A stretch of DNA of 60,048 nt, counting the filler, from Globobulimina sp. (lineage: Eukaryota): the NCBI GenBank assembly GCA_003354225.1. It is 11 parts of 11 records of this genome, joined end to end, with 100 filler letters (N's around TTAATTAATTAA, not from the genome) between each part and the next. Parts side by side here need not be neighbours in the genome. Positions count along the whole stretch, not along the records: positions 27,389 to 32,757 come from PIVH01000611.1; 10 more parts are not named here. One strand, 5' to 3'. The translations under genes were made by a program, and so were the position numbers. Below the pieces are notes generated by a model that saw only the letters and a list, made by a program, of their open reading frames with translations, searched no databases and was not told where the DNA came from. This document shows, one piece after another, positions 3,712-46,700 of this stretch (its first letter is position 1; every line of letters starts with the position of its first letter).

Positions 3712-3759
3712 AGAAAAAGTAGATAAATATATAAACAGCTCAAATTTTCAGTTTCCACA

Positions 3760-12205: not shown

Positions 12206-15200
12206 TGAACTGAATTGATATAAAGCTGATATTTATATCGTTTATAGATATTTATAAATGTAATCCTTCCATTTATAATAACTGACTGGAACTGAGCATT
12301 CCAATCTAATTTCCAATCAATCCATATTCCCAAATATCGCACTTTATCGTATTTCTTAGAGATTGGCTGATTTCCCATTTTTAACTCAAAATATAGTGCT
12401 TTGTGTACTGTATTATTTGATATGGCTGCGATAACCATATAATTCTGTTTTATTGGCTGCAAAAACAGTCTTTTCTTCTTTGCTAAATAAAAAATAAAGT
12501 CTGTCGCGTATTGGAGGTTTGCTTTTAACTCTTCTCCACAGACCGTCCCATCAGAAACGACTGTATTGTCATCTGCATACCCAATGATTATCAAACCTAT
12601 ACGTAATCCATTTACTGCATCAAATTCAATCGTTATAAATATAAATACAATGGGCGACGGGGGCCATCCTTGCGGTATACCGCAAATATCCTGCCTCCAA
12701 TGACAATAATATCCATATATTTTAACTCTGCCCCATCTAAATTCTAGCGCCACATACAAATAATCCAACGCGAAGCCATTAATTCCAATGTTTATCCTCA
12801 TACATTCTATAATTATTTTATGTTGCAACGTATCGAACGCTGCCTTGAAATCAATAAATAATAAGTGCGTATTCTTCTCATTCATCCTATTGTTCCATAT
12901 TAATTCTGTGAGATATGCGATCGCGTCGACACAGCCCAATCCTTTAACAAATCCAAAATGCCTCTTTTTAATTATTTGCATTTTTATTCCATATTTCAAA
13001 TATTTTGACGCCATCCATTTGTCGTAGGGATTGCTACAACTCGATAACAGAGAGACCGGTCTGTAGCTATCCATGTACTTTGCCGGCTTCTTCGATTTAA
13101 GAATAACTGTGACATCCCTTACATTCATCGATAACTCTCTTATACCTAAAATAAATAATGCATTATAGCAAAGATAGAAACCTTGCTTTAAAATATCAAT
13201 TCCATTCTGCAGCATAATATAGTTTGATTTGTCATTATTATTCGCTTTGCCTCTCTTGAACGACATTATGAGAGGTTCCACTTCGTCTTCATTCAAAATC
13301 CCATTTAATTGTTTCAATGCGTCATCATGTTCTTTCGTACCAAATTTCGCTCTGTTTTTCTCATTATAATCATTAATAATTCTGTCAAACTCTTCATTTT
13401 TTCCAATCTCATCCGTTTTATTTTCAATTTCATCCTCGTCGAATCTATGCAAATATGCCATATAATTGTTAGCTTTATCGATTGATTTTGCTGCGTTTAA
13501 TGTGCCATCCACATTATACCACGCTGGGATACATTTTGTTGCGTTGTTATCATATTTAATAATATTATTTATCTGCTTCCACGGCATTCTTCCGTCGTTA
13601 CTGATATTTCTAATTTCGTCTTTTATCCACGCCCTACGTCCAAAGTCGCACAAATCATTACAAATTTTCTTTTTTTCAATCAACAAATTCTTCATTATCT
13701 TCTTGTTCCTGTAACATACATAATCCTTCATCGCATTCTTCATTTCCTTGGTCAGCCAAGGTTTGTCATTTCCAATTCTTTTCTTTCTTAAACCTAATAC
13801 ATCGATCGAAGTGTCTATGATTCTATTTTTAAAAAAGTCCTTTACGGCGTCTAATACGTCATCCCTTGACATACCAATGTAATCTAACAAATACTCCCTA
13901 TTTATACAACAATTCCCATCTCCATACGCCTCCAAGTAATGTGTTACCAATTTATTTAGATCGCTGCCATAGATATCATACCATTCATCCACCGTTTCCG
14001 ATAAATCCTCTCTCCATTGATCCCAGTCTCTGTCCGATCCAGTTCTTATAGCAAATTCAGGCATTTCTGCCTCATACAATTGTCCTTTGTTATAGAATGA
14101 AAACAGTAATATATGATCTGAAAAATATTTCTCTTCTTCTTCCCTCGCAAAGTCCTCTACCCAGAACTTCCAGTCCTCCTCTTTTGTTTTATCATTTATA
14201 AATGCTACATCCGGTGCCGTCCTCTGCTCACTCCTCTGCCTCGTCGGACTTCTATCATTTAAAACGCTGCACTTTTTCTCATAAATCCAATCAGCCAAAA
14301 TCGTGCCGCATTTACTCGCCTCTGACGACCTAATTTTTCCATCGAACCACGCATTATTATGGGCATTCATGTCACCTCCAATAAACATTGGAAATGACCC
14401 ATAATTTTTCGTTGAATTTAATGTTTCCAAATAATCCAATAATAATTCTATTTTTGAGTCAGGTTTGCCATTTTGCGGCCGGTAATAATTATTGACTACA
14501 AACGCTTGGCCCATATCGCTGTCATATACTTTTACCGACAAAACGTATAATTTTGACATTAACAGCAATTTCCTCGCTGCTTTTTCTTTGTCTCCGTTCT
14601 GTTTTTGATTCTCAATTTGTTTGTCAATATTTACATTTTGTGTTATTTTAATATTAATCCTTTCATAATGTATCCCATTACGAATCAATGTGACTACTTT
14701 CCCAAATCCTTTCTTTTTATTTATGACTGTTTGATAATTTTTGATTTTAATCGTCCATTCACTCTCATTCTCATTATAAAATTTATAACATTCTTGCAAT
14801 ACAAAAATGTCCGGTTTCTTTGTCAAAATAAAAAAATGAATATGCGATCTGGTATTTACTGTGAATCCATCAACATTCCATTGACAAATCAATAATCCCT
14901 TCTCGCGAGTTAATAACATATCGTTTCTAATATCATATTCATGCTCAATTTCGTCTAAAATCGTATCATTTTCATCATTAAATCTATTCGCAACGTCAGT
15001 GCTCAAATTTATATCATTCGAACTCTGATTTTGCAATTCAACATTATCATTGTTACAATTATTATTATTACAAATCTCAATTTCATCGAAATTCGTACAA
15101 TCAAAGGTTTCAATGTCATCCACAACGGAATGATTATTGAGACCGGGCTCCTCATTTAAAACAATACCATCAACACAAGAGAAGTCATTGCGTTGACTAC

Positions 15201-15237
15201 TAAAATGACTGTGTGTTTGCTTGGGGCCATCCATCAT
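12202..15237 (-). CDS. LINE ORF2: AP-like endonuclease + reverse transcriptase
   Basis: APE: QWNVDG, LQEC, GGDMNAH, PDVAF, SDHILL. RT: YRPVSLLS, HFGFVKG, IDFKAAFD, GIPQG, GYADD, YLGIWID. Confidence 0.93.
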   Translation of the reverse strand: MMDGPKQTHSHFSSQRNDFSCVDGIVLNEEPGLNNHSVVDDIETFDCTNFDEIEICNNNNCNNDNVELQNQSSNDINLSTDVANRFNDENDTILDEIEHEYDIRNDMLLTREKGLLICQWNVDGFTVNTRSHIHFFILTKKPDIFVLQECYKFYNENESEWTIKIKNYQTVINKKKGFGKVVTLIRNGIHYERINIKITQNVNIDKQIENQKQNGDKEKAARKLLLMSKLYVLSVKVYDSDMGQAFVVNNYYRPQNGKPDSKIELLLDYLETLNSTKNYGSFPMFIGGDMNAHNNAWFDGKIRSSEASKCGTILADWIYEKKCSVLNDRSPTRQRSEQRTAPDVAFINDKTKEEDWKFWVEDFAREEEEKYFSDHILLFSFYNKGQLYEAEMPEFAIRTGSDRDWDQWREDLSETVDEWYDIYGSDLNKLVTHYLEAYGDGNCCINREYLLDYIGMSRDDVLDAVKDFFKNRIIDTSIDVLGLRKKRIGNDKPWLTKEMKNAMKDYVCYRNKKIMKNLLIEKKKICNDLCDFGRRAWIKDEIRNISNDGRMPWKQINNIIKYDNNATKCIPAWYNVDGTLNAAKSIDKANNYMAYLHRFDEDEIENKTDEIGKNEEFDRIINDYNEKNRAKFGTKEHDDALKQLNGILNEDEVEPLIMSFKRGKANNNDKSNYIMLQNGIDILKQGFYLCYNALFILGIRELSMNVRDVTVILKSKKPAKYMDSYRPVSLLSSCSNPYDKWMASKYLKYGIKMQIIKKRHFGFVKGLGCVDAIAYLTELIWNNRMNEKNTHLLFIDFKAAFDTLQHKIIIECMRINIGINGFALDYLYVALEFRWGRVKIYGYYCHWRQDICGIPQGWPPSPIVFIFITIEFDAVNGLRIGLIIIGYADDNTVVSDGTVCGEELKANLQYATDFIFYLAKKKRLFLQPIKQNYMVIAAISNNTVHKALYFELKMGNQPISKKYDKVRYLGIWIDWKLDWNAQFQSVIINGRITFINIYKRYKYQLYINSVH

Positions 15238-16229
15238 AAATTAAAGCGGTTTGTGGATGGTGGTCCGTTATTTTTATTATTTGCTAATTTAAATTGCTCG
15301 ATTCCCGTTAATTTCAATTCTCCGCTCTTTTTTCTACCAATACAGCCATTCGCCATCAATTTATGAATTATATTATCATTCCAATTGCAATAAATCATTA
15401 CTCGCTGTGCCTCATTATAGGAAATCTTCGCATTTGTTTGCTTCTTCACTTTGGCAATAAAACGGCTAATTTGAGCCTCCTGTTGGTCTCTTTTGAAGGC
15501 CGATGAGCTAAACTGCCCTGAATGTGACTCATTGTTTACATTTATCTCCTTCTCCTCACTCTGCATTACAATTTCATGACTTTCGCTATCATTTACAGCC
15601 GCTTTTTGTATATTATTTGCGTCTGAGTCTGCTTCCATATTACTATGCAAATTATTCATATCTGTATCAATGTCGTCGTTCTCCTTCGAAAACGTCAATA
15701 AATTCAATTCTAACATTAAATTTCCAATAATATCTTGCTTATATTCTCTCATTTTACCATTCCAGTTTGCAATAATTGCCGTCGCGTCAAACAATAAAAC
15801 ATTTCCATTCTCATCCAATTTATACAATTTCCTCAATTCTGTCAATATCTCATCCCTATAATTATTTGAATTTATATCCCAAATTATCGCTTTCCTGACT
15901 CCCATTTCTATCTTTTGTTCATTAAAATTCCTCAATTTCGTGTCATTTGTCCATACTTCTCGTTTTTTCTTCGGTGCATTTACTGCAAATTCTGTCCAAT
16001 ATACTCTTTGTCCTGCAACCGTTCTCGCATTTTCTTCGAGCCATTCTAACTTAATGGGACCCGACGACGTTAACAACAGCGATTGACTGATTTTCTTGGA
16101 GATGTCTCCAAATCTCTCGCACGTTATCTTGTATCCTCTATAATTATTTGTAACTATTTGCAATATCTCATTAGCTGCTACATCATCTCCGTACGCCTTC
16201 GAATCATTGGCACCTTTATTGCGGAACAT
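15234..16229 (-). CDS. Putative LINE ORF1
   Basis: 331-aa ORF directly upstream of ORF2; its TGA overlaps the ORF2 ATG (ATGA); same strand composition. Confidence 0.7.
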   Translation of the reverse strand: MFRNKGANDSKAYGDDVAANEILQIVTNNYRGYKITCERFGDISKKISQSLLLTSSGPIKLEWLEENARTVAGQRVYWTEFAVNAPKKKREVWTNDTKLRNFNEQKIEMGVRKAIIWDINSNNYRDEILTELRKLYKLDENGNVLLFDATAIIANWNGKMREYKQDIIGNLMLELNLLTFSKENDDIDTDMNNLHSNMEADSDANNIQKAAVNDSESHEIVMQSEEKEINVNNESHSGQFSSSAFKRDQQEAQISRFIAKVKKQTNAKISYNEAQRVMIYCNWNDNIIHKLMANGCIGRKKSGELKLTGIEQFKLANNKNNGPPSTNRFNL

Positions 16230-16337: not shown

Positions 16338-16437
16338 NNNNNNNNNNNNNNNNNNNNNNNNNNNNNNNNNNNNNNNNNNNNTTAATTAATTAANNNNNNN
16401 NNNNNNNNNNNNNNNNNNNNNNNNNNNNNNNNNNNNN
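16338..16437. other. Artificial contig linker
   Basis: N44-TTAATTAATTAA-N44. Confidence 0.99.
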
Positions 16438-16530: not shown

Positions 16531-16965
16531 ATGATAAAAAAGTTGTATATTAGCACACGAACATTAGCAACCAGTCAAGTCTCGAATTGTATTATATATC
16601 ATAATTTATTCTCTTCCCTTTTAATTAATATAATAATTCTCTGCATTAATTTCTTTTATTACTCCTGTTTATGCCATTCCGTTATTTTTGTAATTGATAC
16701 AAAAGACAGAGACCATTCTGCTTTTACAGATTTGCTAATTGTGATTCTTTCCCATTGCAATCTGACAATATCAGCAGAATACTCTACTTTATCTGTATAT
16801 GATTTGAATTTTTATTTTAAGTCCCCCAATAACTCTGTATATCAATTAATAATTCAATTACAATTCCTTAGTTATGACGGTGCCGTTTCTGAAACACAAA
16901 ATAAAAATCTAAGTAAAACTAAGTCCACTCACAAAAGTTCAAAATCAATCCCTTGTTATGGTTAA
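16531..16965 (+). CDS. Small hydrophobic ORF inside the LINE, overlapping both neighbours
   Basis: 144 open codons in AT-rich DNA; ATG overlaps the TGA of an upstream basic ORF (16439-16534); stop overlaps the ORF2 start by 8 nt. Confidence 0.5.
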   Translation: MIKKLYISTRTLATSQVSNCIIYHNLFSSLLINIIILCINFFYYSCLCHSVIFVIDTKDRDHSAFTDLLIVILSHCNLTISAEYSTLSVYDLNFYFKSPNNSVYQLIIQLQFLSYDGAVSETQNKNLSKTKSTHKSSKSIPCYG

Positions 16966-19900
16966 ATATAATATATTACAATACAATGTAAGTGGGCTAA
17001 TAGGCCCAACAAATATGTCACAAGAAAATAAATGTCGGAGAATTAACCAAATAATGACATCTCGACAGATTGACTTTCTGCTAATCCAAGAATGGAGTGC
17101 GACTTTAAGATATGCGGTAACTCCGAATAACTCCGTATACCTTGACAAGCAAAATAAATCCCATACACTCAAGTTTCCGATAAGATTCTTCCCAAACTAC
17201 AAAGTCCATTACACAGGCACCGAAACTGCCATTTTGTATAGGGATACTTTGTTAGTTACACCATTAAATTCGCCACCAAATTATAACCATAATAATCGCA
17301 CAAAAAACTGCCACATAACAAGCGTTATCCTCCATAGTGATGACCAAGATATAGGCATCCATTCGTTATATAACTGCCCCCGAAATCTGAATATTGACCA
17401 GCTGTTTGATTATCCCTTACATGCAGACAGAAACATAATTGCCGGCGATTTCAATATCCCGAATGTAGTTTGGGGCAGCAATCGATCAACAAATGAGTCT
17501 GATAATTTCATTGATGGCCTAAATTACCTCGGAATGCAGATCCTAAACATAACAAATCCGTCCTATACACATATCCATAAATCCTGCCATACCAAATCCT
17601 CCATTGATCTAACTTTAATATCCAATAACTTAAAACATACAAATTGGTCCATTCTCCATACATTGTATGACAGAAACTGCTCGGACCACGTTCCCATTGT
17701 AACCACCTTTGAAGTAGATAATGTTTTCGGTTTTAGCGAAACAAAAAAAACCTGGAACCTCTCAGATTCAAAAAAGTGGAATAAGTATACAAACTTATTG
17801 GAAACTAATATAAAAGACACTGCCTTTGATGCAGACCCAAACGCATACACAGAACAACTTACATATCTTATCCTATATACTGCAGAACAGTCAATAGGAT
17901 ACAAACATTACTACCGTGGCCATAAACCATGGTGGAATAATAAAATTAAAAAACTAAAAAAGCGTTGCAAACGCCTTAGACGCCGAATCCAAAGAATGAA
18001 GAAAAAAGCAAAACGTAATGCCACTGCTTTCCACATTTTCCCCAAATATAAACGATTAAAACCTCTGTTGAATGATTTACAATCAAAGAAACTGAGAGCA
18101 ATAAGAGTTGCCAAATACCAATATAACTTACGTATAAATAAATATATCCAAACATGTAAAGACTACGGCCGCCGTTTCTGGCAAACCGTATCTAATAATA
18201 AATCAAATGGAATTAATACAAATAATATTCCCCCATTGCAGTATAAAAATGAAAATAATATAATTAATCCATGTAAACAAGCAAAAGTATTACAGGAAGC
18301 AATGACCAGACCCCCTAAACCAAAAATAAGTGATAAATACAATGAATGGCATAAATATATCAATACATTTGTCCCTAAATTCCTTAAAAACCATAGAAAA
18401 ACACCAATAAATGATAAAAATGACATACACAATATAACCAATGATAAAATTAAACAAAATAATAAATCAGAAATCCAAACTCCCTCACAAATAAATACAG
18501 CAATCCCAATACCAAATAATGAATATAGAATATTAAATGATCCGATATTAAAATATGAAATTCGATCTGTAATAAGAAATCTTGACACACATAAAGCATA
18601 TGGACCTGATAGAGTCCATAACCAAATGATAAAACACGGCGGAGAGCCGCTCATCAACTGCTTACTTCCTTTGTTTAATAAATGTATGACTGAAGGTGTA
18701 TTCCCAAACTATTGGAATTTCTCACACCTTCTGCCAATACCAAAGCCAAATAAAGACCACAGCAACCCTAAAAACTACAGACCCATTGCAATATCTTCGT
18801 GCCTCGGTCGGGTTTTTGAAAAAATCTTAGCAAATAGACTGCAACACTTTTGCGTTGAAAACAAGATATTCAATAACTATCAATGTGGATTTCAAATAAA
18901 TCGTTGCTGTGATGATGTGTTAACAACTTTCATAACTGATATACAAACATCTTTTGATATGGTCAGTGATACTGACGCTGTATTTACTGACTTCTCTAAA
19001 GCCTATGATAGTGTGTGGCATAATGGTTTATTATATAAATTAATTAAAAATAACATAAAAGGAAATATATTAAATGTCCTTGCTTCCTTCATACAAACAA
19101 GGTACACGAAAGTTATTGCCAAAAAAGCGGAATCCAACTGGGTGGCACAGCCAATTGGTGTTCCACAAGGATCAGCACTATCCCCTATCCTATATATCCT
19201 ATTTACAAATGATTTCAAATTAAAATTTCCAAACTTTGTCCATTTTGCTTGCTTTGCAGATGATACTGCTTTTTGGACAAGTCCGGGTTCCAAAGATCCA
19301 ATCCGTTATAAATTCCTCCAAAAAGAACTAAATAATTTCGGAGATTGGTGTGTAAAATGGCAACTAATGATAAATCCGTCCAAATGCCTTTCCATGAATT
19401 TCTCGCATAGCAACTCCCTAAAATTCCATCCAAAATATAAGAATAAAACTGATCCTGTCACCAATAAGCTATCCCAAATAAGTAAATATAATATTCATTC
19501 GATCCCAATAAAATATGAAAAAACTGCCCGGTATCTTGGAATATGGTTTGATGAACGCCTCAATTTCCATGCACATTTCGCCAAAATAAAGGCTAAAACT
19601 ATGCGAAGTTATTGGCGACTCTACTTTACAATGAAAAATGGCATAAAACTATCCCCAATATCCATAGCGATCCTATATAAATCCCTCGCTCGCTCCAGAA
19701 TAGAATATGGGTTATCTCATTATTACCCATATGATTCTAAAAATTTGCTAAAAATCCTCCAAAATAAATTCCTCCGTTTGGCAATCCCATGCAGACTGGA
19801 CTCACCAATGGATATTATCCAATTCCTCCTAAAAATTGAACCAATAACATACAGAGCCCATTACCTAACAATGAGGCAGCTCGCTAGAGTCTATTATAAC

Positions 19901-21274
19901 GATAATTATCACCCTTTAAATAAAACGTATAATGCACTAAATAAATATAAACAAACTATCCAATCCTACAAATACAGAAAATCCAATAAAACCAAACCAA
20001 ACTCCCTTACCAATCTAAATAAAAACCCGTTAATAATTGCAACTAAATATTGCCAAAATAATAATGACATTAAAGCATTATCTCAGGACCTAAATAAAAT
20101 GAATAAATTGCAGGTGACCTCCTCTCCGGCTTACAACCTTAAAATATTACCCGCTAATTTTGATGTAGATACAAGCCCGGCAAACCCGTCAATGCCTGCA
20201 AATGCTGAACTTATCATAGCATTTACAGACGGATCATGCGATCCAAACCCAGGAAGAGGTGGAGCTGCCATCTATATCCCATCCCAACCATCCCATCCAG
20301 CTGCAATTAAACAAACATATTACTTCAAAATCCCAGTAACGATCACCACCGCAGAGATCGAAGCGGTCCATATGATATTAAATTATATTCTAATCTCCCC
20401 AACAAACTCCAGAATCCATTATAAAATCTATATTGATAACTTACCACTCCTCCAATTCATAAATGGTCAGAACTATCCAAAATATAATGATACAAAAATA
20501 TTAATAGAGAATATATACATTAAACTCACTCAAATAAATCAAAACAAACCTAACATATTTATTTCATTCATAAAAATAAAATCACATAATAATAATATAT
20601 TTAATGATGAAGTGGATAGATTGGCCAACTTTGCAGCAAAACATACAAAATATGACCAATCATTATATCATCAAATTTCATATAATACCACAATAACGCA
20701 GCTACACAAACAAATAAATTACAAATGGAACAATCAATGGATTAATCGAAATACAAAACCAATCCAGGATAGCTACAAAATGAACAAAGCAAATCCTACG
20801 CTACATAATAAACTAAATAAAATAATACGATTTCTCAATAAAGATGAAGCAGCAATGATGAACCGCTTCATCTCAGGACACGTCGAGCTAAACGCGTTCC
20901 TATTCAAGCATAAATTTAAAGATTCGGATCAATCAGAAATAATTTCGCCAATTTGCGCACAATGTAATAATAATAAGCCAGAATCCATCTACCATTATTT
21001 TATCAAATGCAACGCTTATATCCATCAACGAAAGCGTATGATTGACTCTTTCCATGATATCTGGATTGGATTTCGAAATGGTAATAGGTTTAGCCTAAAT
21101 GAGCTATTCTATCCATATACAATCCGGCGACCTCCAGACATTGACGAAGAGCTGAAAATAGAGACCCAAGTAAATATTTGGAAAAACCTTCTAAGATTCA
21201 CAAAAGAAACAAAAAGATTCCAGAACCTATACCAAGTGGACCTAATGAATCTATATCCGATCCTTATGGATTAG
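16958..21274 (+). CDS. LINE ORF2: endonuclease, reverse transcriptase, RNase H, CCHC zinc finger
   Basis: QYNVSG, IQE, AGDFN, SDHVP; YRPIAISS, QCGF, DFSKAYD, GVPQGS, FADD, YLGIWFD; AFTDGS...AEIEAV...YIDN...KSH...NDEVDRLA; CAQC...ESIYHYFIKC. Confidence 0.96.
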   Translation: MVKYNILQYNVSGLIGPTNMSQENKCRRINQIMTSRQIDFLLIQEWSATLRYAVTPNNSVYLDKQNKSHTLKFPIRFFPNYKVHYTGTETAILYRDTLLVTPLNSPPNYNHNNRTKNCHITSVILHSDDQDIGIHSLYNCPRNLNIDQLFDYPLHADRNIIAGDFNIPNVVWGSNRSTNESDNFIDGLNYLGMQILNITNPSYTHIHKSCHTKSSIDLTLISNNLKHTNWSILHTLYDRNCSDHVPIVTTFEVDNVFGFSETKKTWNLSDSKKWNKYTNLLETNIKDTAFDADPNAYTEQLTYLILYTAEQSIGYKHYYRGHKPWWNNKIKKLKKRCKRLRRRIQRMKKKAKRNATAFHIFPKYKRLKPLLNDLQSKKLRAIRVAKYQYNLRINKYIQTCKDYGRRFWQTVSNNKSNGINTNNIPPLQYKNENNIINPCKQAKVLQEAMTRPPKPKISDKYNEWHKYINTFVPKFLKNHRKTPINDKNDIHNITNDKIKQNNKSEIQTPSQINTAIPIPNNEYRILNDPILKYEIRSVIRNLDTHKAYGPDRVHNQMIKHGGEPLINCLLPLFNKCMTEGVFPNYWNFSHLLPIPKPNKDHSNPKNYRPIAISSCLGRVFEKILANRLQHFCVENKIFNNYQCGFQINRCCDDVLTTFITDIQTSFDMVSDTDAVFTDFSKAYDSVWHNGLLYKLIKNNIKGNILNVLASFIQTRYTKVIAKKAESNWVAQPIGVPQGSALSPILYILFTNDFKLKFPNFVHFACFADDTAFWTSPGSKDPIRYKFLQKELNNFGDWCVKWQLMINPSKCLSMNFSHSNSLKFHPKYKNKTDPVTNKLSQISKYNIHSIPIKYEKTARYLGIWFDERLNFHAHFAKIKAKTMRSYWRLYFTMKNGIKLSPISIAILYKSLARSRIEYGLSHYYPYDSKNLLKILQNKFLRLAIPCRLDSPMDIIQFLLKIEPITYRAHYLTMRQLARVYYNDNYHPLNKTYNALNKYKQTIQSYKYRKSNKTKPNSLTNLNKNPLIIATKYCQNNNDIKALSQDLNKMNKLQVTSSPAYNLKILPANFDVDTSPANPSMPANAELIIAFTDGSCDPNPGRGGAAIYIPSQPSHPAAIKQTYYFKIPVTITTAEIEAVHMILNYILISPTNSRIHYKIYIDNLPLLQFINGQNYPKYNDTKILIENIYIKLTQINQNKPNIFISFIKIKSHNNNIFNDEVDRLANFAAKHTKYDQSLYHQISYNTTITQLHKQINYKWNNQWINRNTKPIQDSYKMNKANPTLHNKLNKIIRFLNKDEAAMMNRFISGHVELNAFLFKHKFKDSDQSEIISPICAQCNNNKPESIYHYFIKCNAYIHQRKRMIDSFHDIWIGFRNGNRFSLNELFYPYTIRRPPDIDEELKIETQVNIWKNLLRFTKETKRFQNLYQVDLMNLYPILMD

Positions 21275-21813: not shown

Positions 21814-21913
21814 NNNNNNNNNNNNNNNNNNNNNNNNNNNNNNNNNNNNNNNNNNNNTTAATTAATTAANNNNNNNNNNNNNNNNNNNNNNNNNNNNNNN
21901 NNNNNNNNNNNNN
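21814..21913. other. Artificial contig linker
   Basis: N44-TTAATTAATTAA-N44. Confidence 0.99.
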
Positions 21914-25337: not shown

Positions 25338-27288
25338 ATGTCGTCGTTTCAAGGGCTGCGGCGAATGCAACACACAGCATACAACAAACTTATCCATCAA
25401 CAAATTCGGACACTAATTCCAAAAGATTTAAAGTTCGGAGTATGAGAAATTATCTGAAAATTCAACACACTATTTACTATTTACTATTTCTTGTAACACC
25501 GTTATACAGATGCTCGTAAATCATTATTAAAAGGAGTAAACATTATGGCTGATACAGTGGGTATGACCTTGGGGCCAATGGGTCGTAATGTAGCCTACGA
25601 ACAGAGATCATGGGAACCGCCACGTGTCTCAAAAGATGGTGTAACAATTGCAAAAGAAATAGAATTATGTGATCCCTTTGAAGATTTAGGTGCATCATTA
25701 TTATATCATATAGCATCAAATACCAATAAGTCCGCTGGTGATGGCACCACTACTTCCACCTTACTGGCACGTGAATTATTTGTCGGCGCAATGAAAGCAA
25801 TCAGCGCCGGTTTTAATCCAATGGATATTAAGCATGGAATTAATATATGTACACGACAAATTATCGCCTTTTTACAGTTGCTCAACGAGAATTTTTGGGA
25901 TAAAGACCTAATATTACGGGTCGCCTCTATTTCTGCCAACGGTGATGAAGAGATTGGTGAATTGGTAGCGGCCGGCATTGAACTAGTTGGCTTGGACGGC
26001 GTACTGCAGATTGAAGATGGCCACTGCATCAAAGATGAATTGGAAATTGTGGAAGGCGTACAATATAATTGCGGATATTTATCACCATATTTCATCACTG
26101 ATTCAAATAAATATATTGTACAATATGAGAAACCATTGTTTCTGTTTTACGACAAACCTATCACCGATAAGGAGAGCCATACCATATTGAATATTTTACA
26201 ACAATGTCATAATGCGAACCGTGCATTAATTATATTCACTGAAAAGATTGACAATAACTCCGCTTTAGAATTCTTAGTTAAAAATAAATTAAAAGCCAAG
26301 TGCAAAATATGTGCCATTGCCACCCCGGGGAGTGGTGATTATAAGAAACATAATTTGCGAGATCTAGCAGTTATAACCGGCGGTATTGTATTTACGGATA
26401 GTTATGGTGCGAACAAAGGGGATGGTATTCATATCAATGAATGTGTGTTGGCCGATTTAGGCGAAGCTGAAAACATTATTGTATATAATAATAAGACAGT
26501 TATCTTTGGCGGGAACGGTGATTTCAAAGCGGTGCAAGATCGAATAGACGCAGTCAAATATAAACTAGAGAATTGTTATGCGTATGAAAGAGCAAAACAT
26601 GTGGAAAGATTAGGCAATTTAATGGGTGGTATTGGCATAATCCGTGTTGGCGGAACGTCGGATGTTGTGATCCAAGAAAAAAAAGATCGTGTGATTGATG
26701 CGTTAAACTGTGTGAAAGCAGCCATTGATCAGGGCATATTACCGGGGGCTGGCTTTGCCTTATTTTATGCGTCTTTGTTTTTGAAAAATATAGCACTCAA
26801 ATTAGAGAATCAAGATCAATGCGTTGCAGTCGACATTGTACGCAAATCTTTGCAGATTCCAACCAAAAAAATTATAGATAATGCGGGACAAAATGGTGCT
26901 TGGATTGTACAGGAAATGGAGTGTCGAATCGAGGAGTTTTTAGCTGAAAATAAAGATTTTGAACCATGGGTTTATAGCAAATTGCAGGAAATTGAAGAGA
27001 AAAATAAAAAACAAAGGATTATAATCCATAGTCATGGGGATGATGAGTATGATAAAAATTGTGTCAATTACAATAATGTTGACACCCAAGTTTTATATGA
27101 GATAAATAATGAATTAATGGATGCAAGTTTCAAGAATGAAGAGGATGAGATAATGGATGAATCGCAAAGAGATAAAATCCGACAACTATTCCATTATGGA
27201 TATGATGCAAAATATAAAGAATATTGTAATTTGATGGAGTACGGAGTGATTGATCCATTAAAAGTGACAACCAACGCATTGATTGATG
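25338..27288 (+). CDS. hsp60: Divergent mitochondrial-type chaperonin 60 (GroEL/Hsp60), 3'-partial
   Basis: Presequence-like N-terminus plus KDLKFG; TLGPMGRNV, KDGVTIAK, AGDGTTT, GYLSPYFI, DRVIDAL, GVIDPLKV. Confidence 0.92.
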
Positions 27289-27388
27289 NNNNNNNNNNNN
27301 NNNNNNNNNNNNNNNNNNNNNNNNNNNNNNNNTTAATTAATTAANNNNNNNNNNNNNNNNNNNNNNNNNNNNNNNNNNNNNNNNNNNN
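27289..27388. other. Artificial contig linker
   Basis: N44-TTAATTAATTAA-N44. Confidence 0.99.
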
Positions 27389-27622
27389 CATGGTTGAAAC
27401 TCTGTAGCATTCAAGTTTTTTTTCGATTACTGCCCTGAAAAAAAAATTAAACGGTTTTTATGATTTCAGTGTGTCAGCAGATTTAGTGTCTGTGCAAGGA
27501 TAATATGACATGCAGCTGCAACTCTGTGATTTCCGTGCAATGTTTGAAGTTCCGTGCAAAAAATCTGTGATTTAAACATTGTTTATACATTTTATACTAA
27601 CTCTACAGAATTGAAATAAGAA

Positions 27623-30600
27623 ATGGTCAAGTCGATTTTACAACAGAAGGCGATTAAGAAACGATTCAAATATCTTACTCTTTATAAAATTGGAAAGAAA
27701 CGAATCCGTTTTAGAAAGAAAAAGAGAAAACCATGTAAACAAATTATTGAAAAACCACATTGGATTTTACAAATGTTTATTGACTCTGAAATTTTATTTT
27801 TTCGTTTTATGATAATTATTTGTGGATTTTTATTGAATATTATTAAAAAAATTTGGTTTTCTGACACAATGTATTATTTATTTGGATTACTACATAGTTT
27901 ATATCATTTAGATGGAAAATTAGCATCTATTGTTATATCAGAATTAATAAATATTTGGGGAAAGATTTTAATTGGTCCACATTATTTAAAATTTATTAGT
28001 AATTGTACAACAATCAGTACTTTTCTTTGTTGTTTGCAATATTATAATATCGTAGATATTACTATGCGTTCTTTACATATTTTTCGATTTTGTAGCATCA
28101 ATTATTTTTACAACATTTGGTTTTTTTTATTTATAATTAACGGATATCCAATATTTTCGAATTTGTTTCCATTATTGATCAAAAATATTATTATCATATA
28201 CGATTACATGTATTATGTTAATAAACCAATTTACTTAATATTGAGAGTAAAATCATTGAATGGTAAAATTACAAAATTTAAAATGAAAAATAATACAATC
28301 ATGCAAAAATTAATGGATGCATATTATTCAAAATTTAAACAGAGACCAACAAAAATACATTTTTTATTTGATGGCGATATAATTAATCCATTATTAACAC
28401 CGCGAAATTTGTGTATAAATAATTGTGATATAATTGATGTAATTAGACGGCAACATGGTGGTGGTGGTAGTAATGACAGTAATAAAAAAAAATCAAATCA
28501 CGGAGGAATACGCACCAAAAAAAAACGGGGTACAAAGCGAAAACGTGATTATGGTAAAAACATTAACCATGAAAAGAGAAAGAATAAAAATCACAATGAT
28601 CAAAGATATTATCAACAACGAAAAAAACAAAAAAGACAAAGTTCGAGAAAGCATTCAAATACACATAAAGATCTGGGTAATATATTCAAACGAGATTGGA
28701 ATACTAAGCAATTTATGATTGATACAGATTGGGAAAAGTATAAATGTAAAATGGATTATTATGATGTTGGAAAACCAGAACATCCATGTGAGTTTTGTGG
28801 AGCATTATTTTATCATGATGAGAGAAATAGTCCAAAAAATTCTACAAAGCATGTATTTGGAAATAAATGTTGTAATTATGGTAAAATCACCGTTAATATT
28901 CCAAAACAACCACCAAAATATTTGAAAGAATTGTTATATGGTAATTCAACGGAAGCAAAATTTTTCAGAAAGAATATTCGTTCATTTAACTGTTTATTTA
29001 CTTGGGTATCAAGCAGCAGTAAATGGAAACCACCAATTAAAAATAATATAACTCAAACTAATACTGATGGCATAGTAAAACCATACGTGTTTAAAGCAGA
29101 CGGTGAATTATATCATACATTTGGTTCATTATGTGCACCAACCAATCAAACACCTAAAGGACTACAAGTTTATATGCATGATCCAGATGCACAAATTGAA
29201 TATCGATCAAATATGTTAAATATAGAAAATAAAAAATTAGGTAAAAAAATTGTAGAAAAAATTCAAGATGAATTATTGAAAGTAAATAATTGGATAAAAA
29301 AATTTAAAACATTATATGATCGAAATAAAATGAAAGAAAACGTGGATGACATGTCATTTATTATTGACCCAAATCCAAATATCAAACATGGAACGTATAA
29401 ATCACAATATAATCGCGGAACATCAAAAAGTACAATTTCAGCATTGATCAAAAAAAATACACGGATAAATTATCAGCCACAACATTATGAAATGTTATTA
29501 CATTATAAAAATGGTAAAATAGATCAAATTAAAGAAGGGCATGCTATGCGAGATCCGGCATGTTTTCCTTTATTGTATCCTTATGGTGATTGTGGTTGGA
29601 GTGAAAATATAGGAATTAGCACTATGCAATATTATAGATATTTATTATATGAAAGAAAGAAAACACCCAATGTTTTACATCATGGTGATAAATTATTTCA
29701 ACAATGGTGTGTTGAGCAATTTGTAAAAATAGATCAAATCAGATTAAATTCATGTAGAACCAAGACAGCTCAAAAAAAATATCGGAAATACTTTATTCCT
29801 GAGGTTCAGAAAGCTATTGATGAAGGGAAAGATATCAATCAAATTGGTGTAAAAACAATATGTCCATCTTCATATAAATATGGACCACGTGATATGTATG
29901 AAAAACAACAAGATGCTTTGGCAATTGTACGAAAATATAAAAGAGCACATTATTTTATCACAATGACAATGAACCCAAATTGTGACGAGGTTAAACGAAA
30001 ACTCAAACGTGGAGAATCTTCTACATCGCGTCCAGATATAGTTGAACGTGTATGGGAACAAAAAAAACAATTGTTGCTGCATGTAGTTTGTAATAAACAC
30101 GTTTTAGGTAAAGTAGCAGGTTATGTTTGGAGTCAAGAATATCAACGTGAAGGTTTACCACATTTACATTTGATTGTAATATTAGATCCTAAAGAAGCTC
30201 CTACACAAATCCATGAATACGATAAATTTATCAGTGCTCAAATACCAAATAAAACAGTGGACAAAGATTTATATGATTTGGTAACGAAACATATGGTTCA
30301 TCGTGATTGTGAGCGAATGAATTGGGCTTCATGTCGTGATGTAAATGGAAAATGTAGGAAAAAATTTCCTAAACCATATTCGCGCTTTACTACACATAAA
30401 AAAAATAGATACCCAGAATATAAGAGACTTTCTCCAAGAGAGGTATGTGAGATAAATTCTGTCATTTTTTTTTTTTAAATTAAATGTGGTTGTACAGGGT
30501 GGATTTACATTTGATGATGGTAAACGTATCGTTGATAATTCATCTATAGTTCCATACAATCCAGCATTATTAAAATTATTTAGATGTCATATTAACGTTG

Positions 30601-32757
30601 AATGTGTTAGTGGTATTGCGTGCATTAAATATATTTTTAAATACGCGCTAAAAGGATCAGAACGTGCAGGTGTGAATATAAAGCGTAATAATAATAAAGA
30701 TGATGATAATAAAGATGATTCAGAAAAACCAATAAATGAGGTTCAAAATGTGATTAACTGTAGGAGAGTAACACCGTATGAATCATGTGCCAGAATATTT
30801 GGGCGACGACAAAACGATAATTATCCTGTAGTTGAAAGATTAAAAATATTTAATCCACATAAGATGATAATATATTGGGATGAGAATAATCCACACACAA
30901 TCCATAATGGTACATTATTAACCAGAAAAAACACATTAACTGAGTTCTTTAGAAATAATGCTATTGAACTGAAAACACCTTTAAACAAAAAGAAAAGAAG
31001 TATTAAAGGCAAATTAGGACCTCATGGATATGAATTATTATATAATGAATACCCACAATATTATAGATGGAATGTAAAAAATAATGAATGGATTAGACGG
31101 ACAAGTGAAATACAAGAACCTGCAATTGGTCGTATATACTTAACAAAAATTACAGAACGAATACGACATTTTATGAGATTATTATTGTTAAAACGCAGAG
31201 GAATTACCAGTTTTGAAAATCTGAAAACAATTATTAACATTAACGGTGAAACAGAAATATGCAAAACGTATATTGAAACATGTGAAAAATTAGGATATTT
31301 ATTTGAAGATAAAGAATGGGAACGAACTATTGATGAAGTCTCAAATTTTGCAGGACCAAAAGCATTGCGTACATTATTTGTAACAATATTGAATGAATGC
31401 CAACCAGTACACCCAAAACATTTATGGGAAAAATTCAAAAAACAATTATGTCAGGATATATATAATAAACGAACATATAAATATGATGAAGAATTGCATT
31501 CTGTAAGTTTGGATGATAATGATCAAGAAATGGAAAAAATATATAATACTGGAAAACGCAAAATTCATGAACAATTACAAATATTAGGGAAATCGATTGT
31601 AAATTTCGGATTTGAAATACCTGAGTTGGATATTTGTTTAGTGGATACTGCAATGCCAATAGAAATTGAACAAGAGAGGGAATATAATATAAAAGAGTGT
31701 GTCGATTATTATACAGAATGGGAAGCAAAATTTAATGTTAAACAAAAAGAGATATATCAAACCATTAAAGATGCAATAGATAAAGGAGAACGTGGTTTTG
31801 GTTATTTTGTTAATGGAATTGGTGGTGCTGGAAAATCGAAAATAGCAAATGCATTATTATCTTACATTCGTTCAAACAAAGAAATTGCTTTAGCTGTTGC
31901 CGGTACAGGAATTGCAGCGAATTTATTATTTGGCGGACGAACATTCCATTCACGATTTAAAGTACCAATAAATATAAATGATTTGGGCGCAGAGGTTGAA
32001 TGGTATAACATTCCAAAAGATAGCGGTTTAGCGGAATTAATTCGTGAATCCAAATTGATTGTATTTGATGAAATTACAACAATTTCTAAATATGCATTAG
32101 AATGTTTAAATAATACATTGAAAGATTTATGCAGTAATAACGAATTTATGGGTGGTAAATTGATTGTTTTAATGGGTGATTTTAGACAATGTCTTCCAAT
32201 TATTAAATTTGCAACACCAGCTGATGTGATTAACGCATGTATGAATCATAGCGATATTTGGCACAATTTCAAACAACAGACATTAGAAACAAATATGAGA
32301 TTGATTGGTAAAGACAAATTGTGCTTTGATTATGCTGAAGATATTTTAAAAATTGGTAATGGAAGTTTCCCTGTTGAAACTCAATTGGGTGAAGATATGA
32401 TAAGAATTCCAGATGATTGGCTATCACACACAAATAATCTATCAGATTTTATTGAAGAATGTTATGAAAATATAGACACTAATTATAAAGATCCAAATTA
32501 CTGGAAACAAAAAGCAATATTAAGTCCATTAAATGAAGATGTAGATTATATCAACGAAATAATTTTAGATAAAATGCCTGGTGAAATACATATAAAAGAG
32601 AGCACTGACACACCATTGGATATGGGCAATCCAATTGATATAGAAATGGAAGATATTTGGAATCATAAAGAAGGTGGTTTGCCATTGCATATACTCAAAC
32701 TAAAAGAAAATGCACCTGTAATGTTATTGCGAAATTTAGCAGCACATAAAGGTTTAT
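27623..32757 (+). CDS. Helitron RepHel: hydrophobic leader + SUMO-like domain + Zn-finger + HUH Rep + PIF1-type helicase, 3'-partial
   Basis: CEFCGALFY...KCCNYGK; Rep motifs YFITMTMNP, EYQREGLPHLHL, KYIFKYALKG; helicase GIGGAGKS, IVFDEI, GDFRQCLP, ETNMR, PVMLLRNL. Intron 30443-30497 (GTATGT...CAG) joins SPRE to GGFTF in frame. Confidence 0.93.
28226..28462 (+). other. SUMO-like (Rad60-SLD/ubiquitin-2) domain within RepHel
   Basis: LILRVKSLNGKITKFKMKNNTIMQKLMDAYY...IHFLFDGDII...TPRNLCINNCDIIDVIRRQHGG matches SUMO hallmarks (FKIK..T...KLM.AY, FLFDG, TP..L, D.IDV...Q.GG). Confidence 0.88.
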
Positions 32758-32857
32758 NNNNNNNNNNNNNNNNNNNNNNNNNNNNNNNNNNNNNNNNNNN
32801 NTTAATTAATTAANNNNNNNNNNNNNNNNNNNNNNNNNNNNNNNNNNNNNNNNNNNN
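32758..32857. other. Artificial contig linker
   Basis: N44-TTAATTAATTAA-N44. Confidence 0.99.
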
Positions 32858-38225: not shown

Positions 38226-38325
38226 NNNNNNNNNNNNNNNNNNNNNNNNNNNNNNNNNNNNNNNNNNNNTTAATTAATTAANNNNNNNNNNNNNNNNNNN
38301 NNNNNNNNNNNNNNNNNNNNNNNNN
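38226..38325. other. Artificial contig linker
   Basis: N44-TNNT-free linker N44-TTAATTAATTAA-N44. Confidence 0.99.
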
Positions 38326-43686: not shown

Positions 43687-43786
43687 NNNNNNNNNNNNNN
43701 NNNNNNNNNNNNNNNNNNNNNNNNNNNNNNTTAATTAATTAANNNNNNNNNNNNNNNNNNNNNNNNNNNNNNNNNNNNNNNNNNNN
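43687..43786. other. Artificial contig linker
   Basis: N44-TTAATTAATTAA-N44. Confidence 0.99.
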
Positions 43787-46700
43787 AACACGGATATTAA
43801 AATCACGCAAGTTCGGATGTTGACGTTGGTGATCGCAGTGAGGTTATTACGGACCAATATTAACCACTTAATATCATGGAATGTGGACCCATATTCTGTA
43901 GGTTTGAACAGTCAGAAACGCGATGAGCTGGGAATGCAAATAAAAGCATCCAAAACGGTGCGTGAGCGCTACGTGGATTTGTTGAATAAGTTAGTTTTTT
44001 TTAAGCCCACATTGGAAATCAGTAAGTTGATAGAAAAGGACATTCATTCCGATTGCTCTGAATGTTTAAGTATCGGACTGAGCGTGTTTTTCACCGACCC
44101 GTCAGATCGAGTACGCATTTTAATCGAACATGTGGAGAATCTGCTAATTGAAGCGAACCCGCTGCGGTTATTGCTGGCGTCGCGATATTTTAATTCGTTG
44201 AAGAAACCGCATAATTTGATTGCGTTGGTGCCTGCGTTGAAAAAGCAAGCGGCGAACATCAAACATGGCGGTGATAACTTGTTGTTATTGTCGCCTATCT
44301 TGGAACTGGTTTATAATGATTGCAAGAAGGAATTGTACTCATTTTTAGCGCAGCCGCTCACTGCAAAGGACAAAGACGACAACGAAGTGGTGGATAATGA
44401 CGAAAGCAATTTAATTGGCACATTGCGGCAGTTTTTAACTCGAATCTCAGTCTGCATGTTCAACGACAATGACGCGTTTATTTTGGAAAACTATACGTTT
44501 CCATATTGCTTCAGTTTGATGAATAAATGTACGCAGTTATTGCAGTATGCGACGAAGCAATGCATCGCCAAACGATTCAATCTCGAGCAAAAGGCCAAAA
44601 TTGTAGAGATATTTCGATACAAATTAGCCGAGCTGTTGTCTCCCATATTAACCTGTATATGGTCGCTGGATTTGGACCAAAATTTGAAGCTTTGCTCCAA
44701 AATATTGCCGCCGGTGTACGAGTTTATCAGCACATTGAACGATTTTATTCGCGATTTGCCCGACTGTTTGTCGGCAGAGCATGAGTTTATAAACAGTAAC
44801 TTCAACAAAATCATCGTGAAAAGAGACATGATTTCCGAGTCTAACCATCCCGTTCAACGCGGTTTTACCGAGAAACATATATTTATCCCAGGCTCCAAGT
44901 CGTTGAAATTAAGCATTGACAAACAAACATTTAACAGCCAGCAAAATTCAGTTGGCTGTTCCTTGTCGTTTTATAAAAAGTGTGGCCAAAACGAGCTCAT
45001 CGCTTCATTTACGTCGCAACCCTCCAAATCGTTGAATATTAGCGGTGATTCCGTGTACGTTGTATTTAGCTCTGGTTATTCTAACAATGCCTGGGGTTTC
45101 AAAATCGCAGTCAACGCCAAAATCGAAGAGGTACAGTTCCAGCTGCCATGGATTTTAGATTTAGCTAAAAATGCATCCATTATCGCTTCCAAATGTATCG
45201 GAGCCTTTTTGTCCGCCAAAATCAATCCAAAACACCTATTCAAAGACAGTGCTCATAAAACACAATCGGCCACATCCACGCCGACCAAATCGACGCCAGT
45301 CAAATCCAGGCGGAAAAAGGGCAAAAAAGAGAAAAAAAGCCTCGAAAAAGAAAAATCGATATTAAATTTACCGCGCACGGAGGCACACTGGTTATCGTCG
45401 GATTTATTGTCCTCTGGCATATTATTCGAGGATGCCAACAATGTCAAAGAAGTGCAATATGTCCAAAGTATACTGCCTAGCCACAAATATTTCGGGTATA
45501 CGGAAGAGAAACAGTCTGACGATTTCATCGAAGATAACCAGATGAGCTATGAACAGATTATCTCCATCGCGGATTCGTTATTTCCGCTGTTGAGAAATGT
45601 GCGTTGCGCTAAGATCCCCACACCGAAAGATGTGGCATCCTTTGTGGATAACTGCACCATCCACGTCTTTGCTGCTTTATTGCTACATAACAATTTGCTG
45701 AAAGTAGCGCTGAAAGTGATCAATGACAACGACTGTGAGGTGCATAACTTACCCGAGCCAATCATCCGTATTTACAAGACCTCGCAAAAGAATTTCTCGC
45801 AATGGCTATTGCAGAAATTCCAGACAGAATATGCCAAGAAACAGCAGGAGCTGCAGAAGAAAAGAGAGGAAGAGCTGAAAAAGAAAGAAGCCAAAAAAAA
45901 GAAGAAGGCCAAGCAAAAGCGAGCGAGCGTGTTATCGCCGTCTGCGTTTAAAGCAGCATTTGGCATTAATATCGGAGAGGAATTGAAACAGCCACCCTCG
46001 CCGCAGTTGGACGCGTTAGTTGGTATGAACCAAATGTTGGATGATCATGGATTGCCGGTACAAAGTGAGGAGAAACAGGGCGTGGATGGCGAGGAAAAAA
46101 AAGATGAGATGCATGTGATGGATGGTGAGGAGGAGAAGGATGAGGGCTTCAGTGCGGATGATGAAGATGACGACGATGACGACGACGAGGAGTTGCTATC
46201 GACGCTGATGTTGAAAAAAAAGAAACTGGCAATGGTTGATGGTGATGATGGGAGTGACAAAGAGCAGAAAAAGAAGAAAAAAAAGGACATTGACCATAAC
46301 CTATCCACTATCAAATCAGCAGCGAATATGTCCATATCTGGCACAATGGCACCAAAACAGGATAAAATAGCAAAGAAATCGAATGGAACAGCAAAGCTAA
46401 CCAATATAGGCAGTAAATGGGAGGTGAATAAGAAGGAATTGTATGAAGAGATATGCAAAGATATCGAGAATCGATGCAAGTTTTTGTTATCTGTGCTATC
46501 CGTACAACCCTCGATACTCAACATGCCAATGGGATTGACACGGAATAAATCCATGGATAAAGCAGCGGGCAGTGCTGCGGAGAAAACCGACACTAAAACT
46601 GCAGCGTTGACCGCCTGGCAACACATGCAATCGAACGATTTAATGACGTTGAAATATGCGACGCCGGAACAGCGACCGAGTTTGGTCTGGAAATATGTGC

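Follow-up and report, generated by a model that had tools for sequence, protein, structure and literature searches.

The window analysed here is a 60,048-nucleotide stretch (filler included) of the Globobulimina sp. assembly GCA_003354225.1, made up of 11 pieces of about 5.37 kb each with N spacers between them. A Helitron of this AT-rich protist lies alone on the piece at positions 27389-32757 (PIVH01000611.1), which is itself cut at both ends and cuts the element at its 3' end. The features of this piece, all on the plus strand, are as follows.

27389..27523, +, left flank, present many times over in the source sample (contig depth 122-349 against ~17 over the gene body)
27623..28207, +, N-terminal extension of 195 codons in a stop-free frame, basic at its start and then hydrophobic and helix-prone; the first in-frame ATG is at 27623
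28208..28462, +, SUMO-family domain (Rad60-SLD) with RRQHGG at its end, residues 196-280 in the full ORF (Pfam and alignments to solved SUMO2/3)
28457..28462, +, di-Gly G279-G280, candidate Ulp/SENP cleavage site, followed by GGS (matches the final GG of mature SUMO2/3 in the alignment)
28463..28786, +, basic low-complexity linker (translation)
28499-28507, +, second HGG, within the linker (translation)
28511-28546, +, NLS-like tract RTKKKRGTKRKR (translation), with a presumed role in nuclear import
28787..28885, +, Zn-finger-like CxxC...CC motif of the Helitron N-terminus (CEFCGALF...CCNYGK, kept in relatives P0003 and P0155)
29630..30178, +, Rep (HUH endonuclease) domain (Pfam Helitron_like_N, 6.4e-44)
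30155-30178, +, HxH motif of Rep, LPHLHLIV (translation)
30443..30497, +, phase-0 GT-AG intron of 55 nt between the two ORFs (GTATGT...TACAG); joining gives an uninterrupted frame
30627..30656, +, two-Tyr motif KYIFKYALKG (spliced translation), which we take to be the catalytic Tyr motif of Helitron Rep domains
31731..32378, +, PIF1-type SF1B helicase (Pfam PIF1 5.3e-51, Pif1_2B_dom 2.2e-6)
31815-31838, +, Walker A motif GIGGAGKS of the helicase (spliced translation)

The encoded protein runs from a hydrophobic N-terminal extension through the SUMO domain, a basic NLS-like linker and a Zn-finger-like motif to the HUH Rep and the PIF1 helicase. Pfam places Helitron_like_N (E 6.4e-44) in an ORF at 27620-30478 and PIF1 (E 5.3e-51) in a second at 30456-32813, and once the 55-nt intron is spliced out PIF1 is in one frame with Rep, the helicase C-terminus being cut at the piece end, 32757. 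Read from the ATG at 27623, which has an in-frame TAA upstream at 27617, the spliced frame comprises 1693 codons with 0 stops and is open to the end of the piece. The sequence-only reading had placed a SUMO fold in frame inside the RepHel ORF, and this was borne out, as the domain shares a single stop-free frame with the Helitron core and, after the intron, with PIF1. The intron is found at the same site in a relative, L001, and the gene models P0155 and P0156 terminate by read-through into the intron. Given 1693 stop-free codons and the presence of the HUH, Tyr and Walker A motifs, the gene looks like a working one and not like debris, and judged from its sequence it is apparently an intact autonomous Helitron transposase. 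By third-position composition the SUMO part could not be told from the remainder of the element, nor from genes of the host.

A contig built independently from a public run spans 27508-30642 without a single difference, and therefore the junction between SUMO and RepHel is not a joining artefact of the present assembly. Contig depth in the source sample is uniform and low over the element body (~17), while the left flank is 7-20 times deeper. This is the one hint of multiple copies and of element termini (in Helitrons 5' TC ... CTRR 3', with a subterminal hairpin); to judge from it, the flank may be a terminal sequence common to other copies. Among contigs at least 80% alike in three runs of one sample, no long diverged copy was found, nothing beyond short pieces being placed on the element body. 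Taken together with the low depth of the body, this means that no family of SUMO-bearing copies is visible. A contig joint from 27536 to 32151 has a side of 29 letters in a single contig, and we regarded it as unreliable; a search of the piece for internal repeats gave nothing structured. The weight of what follows is limited by its resting on a single copy in one draft genome.

We found that the 84-residue stretch encoded by 28208-28459 matches Rad60-SLD (PF11976, the Pfam family to which SUMO belongs) with E 8e-11 and 42.0 bits (cut-off 23.8), over profile positions 4-71 of 72. A phmmer search of solved structures gave 155 distinct chains at E<=0.01, the best being SUMO2/3 at ~1e-10, and among the 60 of the 155 chains listed all were SUMO/Smt3 or apparent SUMO/Smt3-tagged constructs, except for one unnamed 98-aa chain. 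The SUMO2/3 alignments run end to end, from query residue ~8-10 to 85-86; counted on the phmmer alignments, 29 of 76 positions are identical to SUMO2, and the best solved SUMOs reach 36-38% identity. The claim of a near full-length SUMO-like fold, made from the sequence alone, is thus upheld at the level of sequence, as is its position at residues ~200-280 (~203-280 in numbering from the ATG at 27623). Profile searching, which had been proposed as a check, likewise assigned the domain to the SUMO family by both Pfam and phmmer; on the same stretch the ubiquitin family scored 25.7 against its cut-off of 25.4. We conclude from these alignments that the domain is a genuine SUMO-family member over its full length.

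Its distance from the SUMOs in databases is considerable. Word-based searches with residues 1-130 against 5.8 billion proteins of 30-408 aa and with residues 1-260 against proteins of 409-1304 aa returned 11 and 180 candidates, respectively, none of them at E<=0.001. When 27623-28540 was modelled by AlphaFold2 without an alignment, mean pLDDT was 44.0 and only strands 1-2 and helix 1 were formed, so that the model speaks neither for a Ubl fold nor against it. The strand-2/helix-1 stretch is well kept against SUMO2 (FK-M-K..T....KLM.AY against FK-I-K..T....KLM.AY). That a domain so far from database SUMOs still aligns over the length of the fold, with its GG and its frame intact, suggests that it has been maintained.

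The translation across the end of the domain reads ...NNCDIIDVIRRQHGG GGS NDSNKKKSNHGG IRTKKKRGTKRKR..., and IDVIRRQHGG aligns to IDVFQQQTGG of SUMO2 with GG on GG and the canonical spacing from the last strand. The di-Gly described earlier as intact does therefore fall on the terminal GG of mature SUMO2/3, with a Gly next; the His before it is unusual in SUMO tails, Thr standing there in the SUMO2/3 alignments. Translation and Pfam also give the same downstream order as had been read before, namely GGS, a basic NLS-like tract and the Zn-finger/HUH/PIF1 core. GG, GGS, linker and RepHel are continuous, so that a Ubl ending in GG is directly followed, in frame, by a cargo protein. The linker contains the motif HGG-[I/S]-RTKKKRG, common to the element and to the Nonionella stella relative P0003.

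The extension ahead of the SUMO domain has 0 stops in the coding frame, whereas the other five have 8-25, and none of 20,000 composition-preserving shuffles was stop-free (mean 17.5 stops). Its hydrophobic segments lie at residues ~48-80 and ~168-186, and it matched no family in Pfam. The relative P0155 also has a long hydrophobic N-terminal part; a resemblance between the two was equalled in 47 of 1000 shuffles and we do not regard them as alike beyond composition. Since the SUMO domain is internal, behind 195 codons of extension, a cut after the GG would remove a large N-terminal piece and not SUMO alone.

The explanation that we favour, at a rough probability of 0.4 and on grounds of sequence, is that the captured SUMO domain is a processing signal for host Ulp/SENP proteases, by which an NLS-bearing RepHel would be released from its N-terminal part. 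On this view a cellular SUMO gene would have been the source of the domain, which has retained the canonical Q-x-G-G tail, and translation would yield a precursor of the transposase. A SUMO-specific protease of the host (Ulp/SENP, clan CE) would then cut after G280, splitting the extension and SUMO from a RepHel that starts GGS... and carries the basic, nuclear-import-like tract, so that the element would have borrowed its processing signal from the protease system of the host. What we infer from this arrangement is the capture from a cellular gene, the cut, entry into the nucleus and whatever advantage the element may draw from them. In its favour are the full-length SUMO-family domain with a GG that coincides with the end of mature SUMO, and the Gly that follows, because in the SUMO-X fusions used for protein expression Ulp1 cleaves whatever the length of X, provided that X does not begin with Pro. 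The di-Gly is moreover retained, whereas unprocessed SUMO-like domains of the Rad60/Esc2/NIP45 type are not known to have it, and the open 195-codon extension is hydrophobic, something that a DNA enzyme acting in the nucleus might plausibly need to shed.

By analogy, the ubiquitin inserts of cytopathogenic pestiviruses offer a precedent. According to PMC8310069, these viruses carry inserted host ubiquitin after which host ubiquitin hydrolases cut, releasing the N-terminus of NS3, and its reference list cites insertions of NEDD8, LC3 and SMT3B (a SUMO) in pestivirus genomes. They resemble the present element in being genetic parasites with a captured Ubl directly upstream of a replication enzyme; however, those viruses have RNA genomes, infect cattle and acquired their strain-specific inserts recently, these being near-identical to the host gene, whereas here a protist DNA transposon carries a strongly diverged domain for which cleavage is only proposed. 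SUMO/Smt3 precursors, which are processed by Ulp1/SENP, likewise have a full-length domain, a canonical Q-x-G-G and extra residues after it, but their tail is of a few residues and their N-terminal tail is short and flexible, where the element has a transposase of >1400 residues and a hydrophobic extension of 195; its low identity to solved SUMOs and the His before its GG also set it apart from them. Natural ubiquitin fusions (ubiquitin-ribosomal protein, polyubiquitin, FAU), from which the Ubl is removed by a dedicated protease, also join a GG-ended Ubl in frame to an unrelated protein, although they are cellular genes with a ubiquitin-type domain at the extreme N-terminus, as against an internal SUMO-type domain in a mobile element. 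Rad60, Esc2 and NIP45 share PF11976 and its embedding in a larger DNA-metabolism protein, but their domains are tandem and C-terminal and are not known to be processed, whereas the element has a single domain with its GG intact. Should the site prove to be cut, host Ubl proteases would mature the product of a DNA transposon much as they do viral polyproteins, and the SUMO fusions of the laboratory would have a natural equivalent.

The sequence-only reading had named absence from sister copies and an unconserved GG as grounds against it, and the relatives lean in that direction: of the 150 Helitron cluster representatives nearest to the element, 0 have a Ubl domain, and a phmmer search of these 150 with the element's own SUMO domain gave no match. 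There are five closer relatives, at 44-57% identity, of which only P0155 and P0003 retain the N-terminal part, and in neither is a SUMO domain detectable (by Pfam, no Ubl in P0155 at E<=10). As these two are only ~45% identical to the element they are no true sister copies, which makes this a weak test of conservation. P0155 reads ...ILGNGPS... where the element has ...QHGGGGS.... We considered a beta-grasp resemblance ahead of the linker in P0155 and rejected it (Smith-Waterman score 25 against a shuffle mean of 27.9, reached by 1446 of 2000 shuffles); alignment-free structure prediction of the residues just upstream of the linker gave a mean pLDDT of 45.1 and again speaks neither for nor against a Ubl fold. 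The start of P0003 as a SUMO remnant was likewise too weak, only RNKHGG/RRQHGG being matched and 102 of 2000 shuffles reaching the score. A metagenome scan matched 163 pattern stretches, one of them from a relative, L001, a frameshifted copy that begins at query residue 160 and so carries no information on the N-terminus. Release by a host SUMO protease is weakened by the 150 representatives, by P0155 and P0003, by the LGNG of P0155 and by the His directly before the GG, and the host Ulp may fail to recognise so divergent a domain. The earlier precursor interpretation thus stands as to the domain, the position of the di-Gly and the NLS-like tract and RepHel downstream, while the relatives lean against a conserved role.

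The same relatives suit a role-free passenger, which we consider possible but less probable than processing. Helitrons often capture fragments of host genes, and SUMO may have landed in frame in one lineage, to be tolerated there and prone to loss or decay; tolerance may come from its being clipped off or from a permissive N-terminus. Absence of the domain from all 150 representatives is what this would predict, as is its being undetectable in the two relatives that keep the N-terminal part, and the low body depth with no SUMO-bearing copy family in the source sample fits too; in the HELIANO paper, extra domains are described as ancient or recurrent non-essential captures. However, the captured unit is near-exact to the domain boundaries, in frame and with its GG kept, and its distance from database SUMOs argues for a long-preserved frame and fold, unless the host SUMO is equally divergent.

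We think it unlikely that the domain stays uncleaved as a SUMO mimic, binding SIM-containing replication/repair factors or the SUMO E2 and so bringing RepHel to replication/repair sites, or shielding it from silencing, in the manner of a Rad60/Esc2/NIP45-like domain. A well-kept part of the domain, the strand-2/helix-1 stretch, is presumably the SIM-binding groove; P0155 lacks a GG at the corresponding position, so that cleavage is no family-wide requirement; and the recurrence of ubiquitin/SUMO-system enzymes (UCH, Peptidase_C48, OTU) in Helitrons suggests some interplay with these systems. Nevertheless, an exposed Q-x-G-G-G behind a SUMO fold should be cut by the highly active SUMO proteases of the cell, known unprocessed SUMO-like domains have lost the GG, and a lasting 195-residue hydrophobic extension would be awkward on a nuclear enzyme. 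If the site is left uncut, a replication-type enzyme would carry a SUMO mimic of its own.

Cleavage by a host SUMO protease also has a more far-reaching form, which we regard as improbable, in which the precursor is sequestered and the cut is a release switch. The hydrophobic N-terminal part, possibly membrane-inserting, would keep RepHel out of the nucleus, and nuclear entry of the transposase would be gated by host Ulp/SENP activity; in yeast and animals a SUMO protease is located at the nuclear pore. The freed N-terminal fragment would end in SUMO-GG and might be conjugated to host proteins. If true, this would be the first known DNA transposon with polyprotein-style maturation by a host Ubl protease.

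That the SUMO part and RepHel are not one protein, by way of a downstream start or an unrecognised intron, is very improbable: the transcript-derived P0003 does have a Met only 20 residues before its HGG-RTKKKRG, but no in-frame ATG after SUMO would yield a complete Zn-finger and Rep, and the frame is continuous and open over the 195 upstream codons too, which would be unexpected under selection if these were untranslated.

In the HELIANO survey 20 domains are listed as stable cargo of Helitron-like elements, OTU, UCH and Peptidase_C48 among them, and in passages of its main text and in its supplement SUMO/Rad60-SLD is absent from these 20, in line with the earlier remark that no description of this architecture was known. 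Our literature search found no report of a SUMO domain in a Helitron transposase, and SUMO as a Helitron accessory domain appears to be unreported. Ubiquitin/SUMO-system enzymes in Helitrons are reported by HELIANO and by the paper on the VTD deubiquitinase. Canonical RepHel proteins with RPA, OTU, VTD, UCH, Peptidase_C48/Ulp1 or AP endonuclease share the Zn-finger-like motif, HUH Rep and PIF1 with the present element, and in those with OTU, VTD, UCH or C48 the extra domain of the ubiquitin/SUMO system is likewise on the N-terminal side; in the canonical Helitrons, however, it removes modifiers, whereas here it is the modifier itself, SUMO with its GG. Helitrons have taken up OTU, VTD, UCH and Ulp1-type proteases repeatedly, and an element with a modifier and an intact processing site ahead of its transposase offers a directly testable handle on this. 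Either outcome would bear on how rolling-circle transposons stand against SUMO-dependent control by the host. Among the Helitron relatives of the element, UCH is found in P0028, Peptidase_C48 in P0084 and OTU in one A3 member.

The frame that is open after the stop at 27617 translates as ...IDVIRRQHGG GGS NDSNKKKSNHGG IRTKKKRGTKRKR..., and the claim of the sequence-only reading that a SUMO-like domain lies in frame within the Helitron RepHel gene, followed by GGS, a basic NLS-like tract and a Zn-finger-like/HUH/PIF1 core, was borne out by this translation and by Pfam. The 84 residues from 28208 gave the positive profile match that had been anticipated to Rad60-SLD, the family containing SUMO (E 8e-11; 42.0 bits, cut-off 23.8), and barely passed the ubiquitin family (25.7, cut-off 25.4). 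Comparison with all solved structures returned 155 distinct chains at E<=0.01, and 59 of the 60 matches listed were SUMO/Smt3 chains or apparent SUMO/Smt3-tagged constructs, the other being an unnamed 98-aa chain. It can be seen that these alignments span the whole domain and that the GG of the element falls on the final two residues of mature SUMO2/3; identity, counted on the alignments, was 29/76 positions to SUMO2 and 28/78 to the best single chain. We conclude from these comparisons that the domain is real, complete and of the SUMO type, with its di-Gly at the processing position.

In the predicted protein the SUMO domain lies internally, as 196 stop-free codons separate the Met at 28208 from the stop at 27617. 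The five other frames over these codons contain 8-25 stops, and 0 of 20,000 shuffles of the 588 bases were stop-free (mean 17.5 stops); therefore this N-terminal extension is kept open, and it is very probably translated from the ATG at 27623. It matched no Pfam family, and has a very basic start followed by strongly hydrophobic segments at residues ~48-80 and 168-186, with helices only being predicted in a low-confidence structure model. Shortly before the in-frame stop and the ATG, at 27596-27609, TACTAAC and then CTCTACAG resemble an intron branch point followed by a 3' splice site, and a 5'-UTR intron may be present here.

The first ORF is open from after the stop at 27617 to 30478, where it apparently closes, and 3' of the SUMO domain it encodes in the same frame a Zn-finger-like CxxC...CC motif and then the Helitron Rep domain (6.4e-44) with HxH. 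The Tyr motif is encoded in a second ORF, in another frame, as is the PIF1 helicase (5.3e-51). A textbook intron separates the coding parts:

30443-30497 (+), intron of 55 nt, phase 0, GTATGT...TACAG

When the exons are joined there are 1693 codons from the ATG at 27623 with 0 stops, open through the end of the piece. A metagenome relative, L001, has an intron at the identical site, and the database gene models P0155 and P0156 terminate by reading into the intron. A contig built independently from a public run spans 27508-30642 with 0 differences, so the continuity of the upstream part, SUMO and Rep is no artefact of assembly.

Cleavage by Ulp/SENP proteases, which recognise the SUMO fold, takes place after the GG regardless of the next residue, Pro excepted, and we know of no SUMO-like domain remaining attached that has not lost the GG. 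In the element the GG is kept and the next residue is Gly; given this rule, the simplest expectation is that a host SUMO protease would cut the predicted precursor after G280 of the full ORF. The cut would free RepHel, with the strongly basic, NLS-like tract following its new N-terminus, and the hydrophobic extension would be discarded together with SUMO. We put the probability of such cleavage and release at roughly 0.4. A comparable and well-documented case is that of cytopathogenic pestiviruses, where cellular hydrolases cut at inserted host ubiquitin, which acts as a processing signal, and so release NS3 (PMC8310069); NEDD8, LC3 and SMT3B insertions are cited in the reference list of that paper.

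To look for relatives, 1.84 billion cluster representatives were searched exhaustively by HMMER with exon 1 as the query, which gave 10,071 matches at E<=0.001, and the best 150 were examined. Pfam detected neither Rad60-SLD nor ubiquitin in any of these 150 (45 searched at E<=0.001, and 41, 48 and 16 at E<=0.0001, the family lists being complete for the 48 and 16 representatives, with 16 and 8 families), nor did phmmer with the SUMO domain of the element match any of them. UCH was present in P0028, a partial Peptidase_C48 in P0084 and OTU in one other, which fits the known carriage of ubiquitin- and SUMO-system enzymes by Helitrons. The best 150 matches, a word-based search and a metagenome scan together provided only five relatives above ~40% identity.

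Relatives of the element above ~40% identity
P0003, 45%, EukProt transcript-derived protein labelled Nonionella stella
P0015, 53%, fragment
P0155, 45%, 1055 aa, from the word-based search
P0156, 57%, fragment, from the word-based search
L001, 47%, frameshifted, beginning at query residue 160

The Rep part of L001 is divided over three overlapping frames (1-1768) and the helicase half (1821-4331) is still open; judged by its frames, it is a decaying copy. The N-terminal part is retained only in P0155 and P0003. The alignment of P0155 begins at G85-G-G-S of the element (domain numbering), where P0155 has ...ILGNGPS..., and neither Pfam at E<=10 nor a Smith-Waterman comparison with shuffles revealed a Ubl domain in P0155. 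P0155 likewise has a long hydrophobic N-terminal part, although its likeness to the extension goes no further than composition. Residues ~40-170 of this gene model include two internal near-exact repeats of ~35 and 17 residues, which are translated tandem DNA repeats in an open frame. P0003 starts with a Met 20 residues before HGG-[S/I]-RTKKKRG, a motif it has in common with the element, in which this HGG is the second, 15 residues past the SUMO GG; the score of its first residues against the SUMO tail was reached by 5% of shuffles. The SUMO domain was thus seen in 0/2 informative relatives, both of which are distant, P0003 being a partial transcript. The SUMO-GG and Helitron fusions that had been looked for in relatives were found neither among the best 150 nor in these two, P0155 having GNG, not GG.

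Processing by a host protease is a reasonable hypothesis, and the absence of the domain from all relatives examined weakens it. That no conservation of the domain was seen favours a tolerated passenger capture with no role, which we regard as possible, if somewhat doubtful. It is unlikely that the domain is an uncleaved SUMO mimic recruiting SIM-bearing factors or E2, an explanation in keeping with the well-kept strand-2 and helix-1 stretch and with P0155 being without GG. That the two parts are translated separately is highly improbable. Evidence of cleavage, or of the domain being conserved between copies, would raise the interest of the fusion considerably.

A separate word-based search (exact five-residue words, 5.8 billion proteins, targets <=408 residues) gave 11 candidates for the domain, none of which scored; canonical SUMOs, as candidates, would have done so. 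Since it has too few exact words in common with database proteins, we conclude on this measure that the domain was not copied recently from any SUMO among the searched collections. It has either had a long evolution in the element with fold-length similarity, frame and GG kept, or the SUMO of the host is itself unusually divergent, and a composition comparison was of no help in telling these apart.

Among contigs of the source sample, no other contig of >=80% likeness was found beyond short pieces. At one loose contig end, next to a match of 36 nt near 30266-30301, the letters resemble Rep-coding sequence when read by eye, which would mean that more diverged Helitrons are present in the sample. 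The depth of source-sample contigs was 7-20 times that of the gene body over the left flank (27389-27523) and ~2x over the final 600 bases (32151-32757), which suggests that terminal or subterminal sequence recurs in numerous other copies, perhaps non-autonomous ones, and that the helicase end is present in a second copy.

The core of the element is that of an ordinary Helitron, and the accessory SUMO domain is the new part. The HELIANO survey describes 20 domains that Helitron-like elements carry stably; SUMO, Rad60-SLD and ubiquitin are absent from those in its main text, and its supplement has 0 matches to Rad60/SUMO. We found no description of a SUMO-transposase fusion occurring naturally in literature outside subscription journals, which was judged mostly at the level of abstracts, and within these sources the view that the architecture is undescribed holds.

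The window is split into 11 pieces of ~5.37 kb each by twenty N44 runs, paired around TTAATTAATTAA.

Spacers, each N44 + TTAATTAATTAA + N44
5382-5481
10862-10961
16338-16437
21814-21913
27289-27388
32758-32857
38226-38325
43687-43786
49144-49243
54599-54698

Because the window is a concatenation of pieces, genes on either side of a spacer are not genomic neighbours. The piece at 27389-32757 carries the Helitron gene alone, with both ends cut, and the remaining pieces hold ordinary eukaryotic genes (Cpn60, protein kinase, RCC1, RGS, DEP and others) and two LINE-type retrotransposons. G+C is ~30% overall, with short introns and a fit to the standard code. Other open frames are as follows:

12205-15240 (-), long, open non-LTR retrotransposon ORF with endonuclease and reverse transcriptase
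16913-21271 (+), long, open non-LTR retrotransposon ORF with endonuclease, reverse transcriptase and also RNase H; 1453 codons, 0 stops
25497-27287 (+), intronless Cpn60-type chaperonin ORF, cut by the piece end
43787-49141 (+), 1785-codon open frame, no Pfam match at E<=1e-6

There seem to be several young mobile elements in this genome. A long insertion rich in Asn, Lys and Glu seems to be present near the C-terminal third of the Cpn60-type ORF, and the piece with the 1785-codon frame has a G+C of ~41-42%, above the rest of the window.
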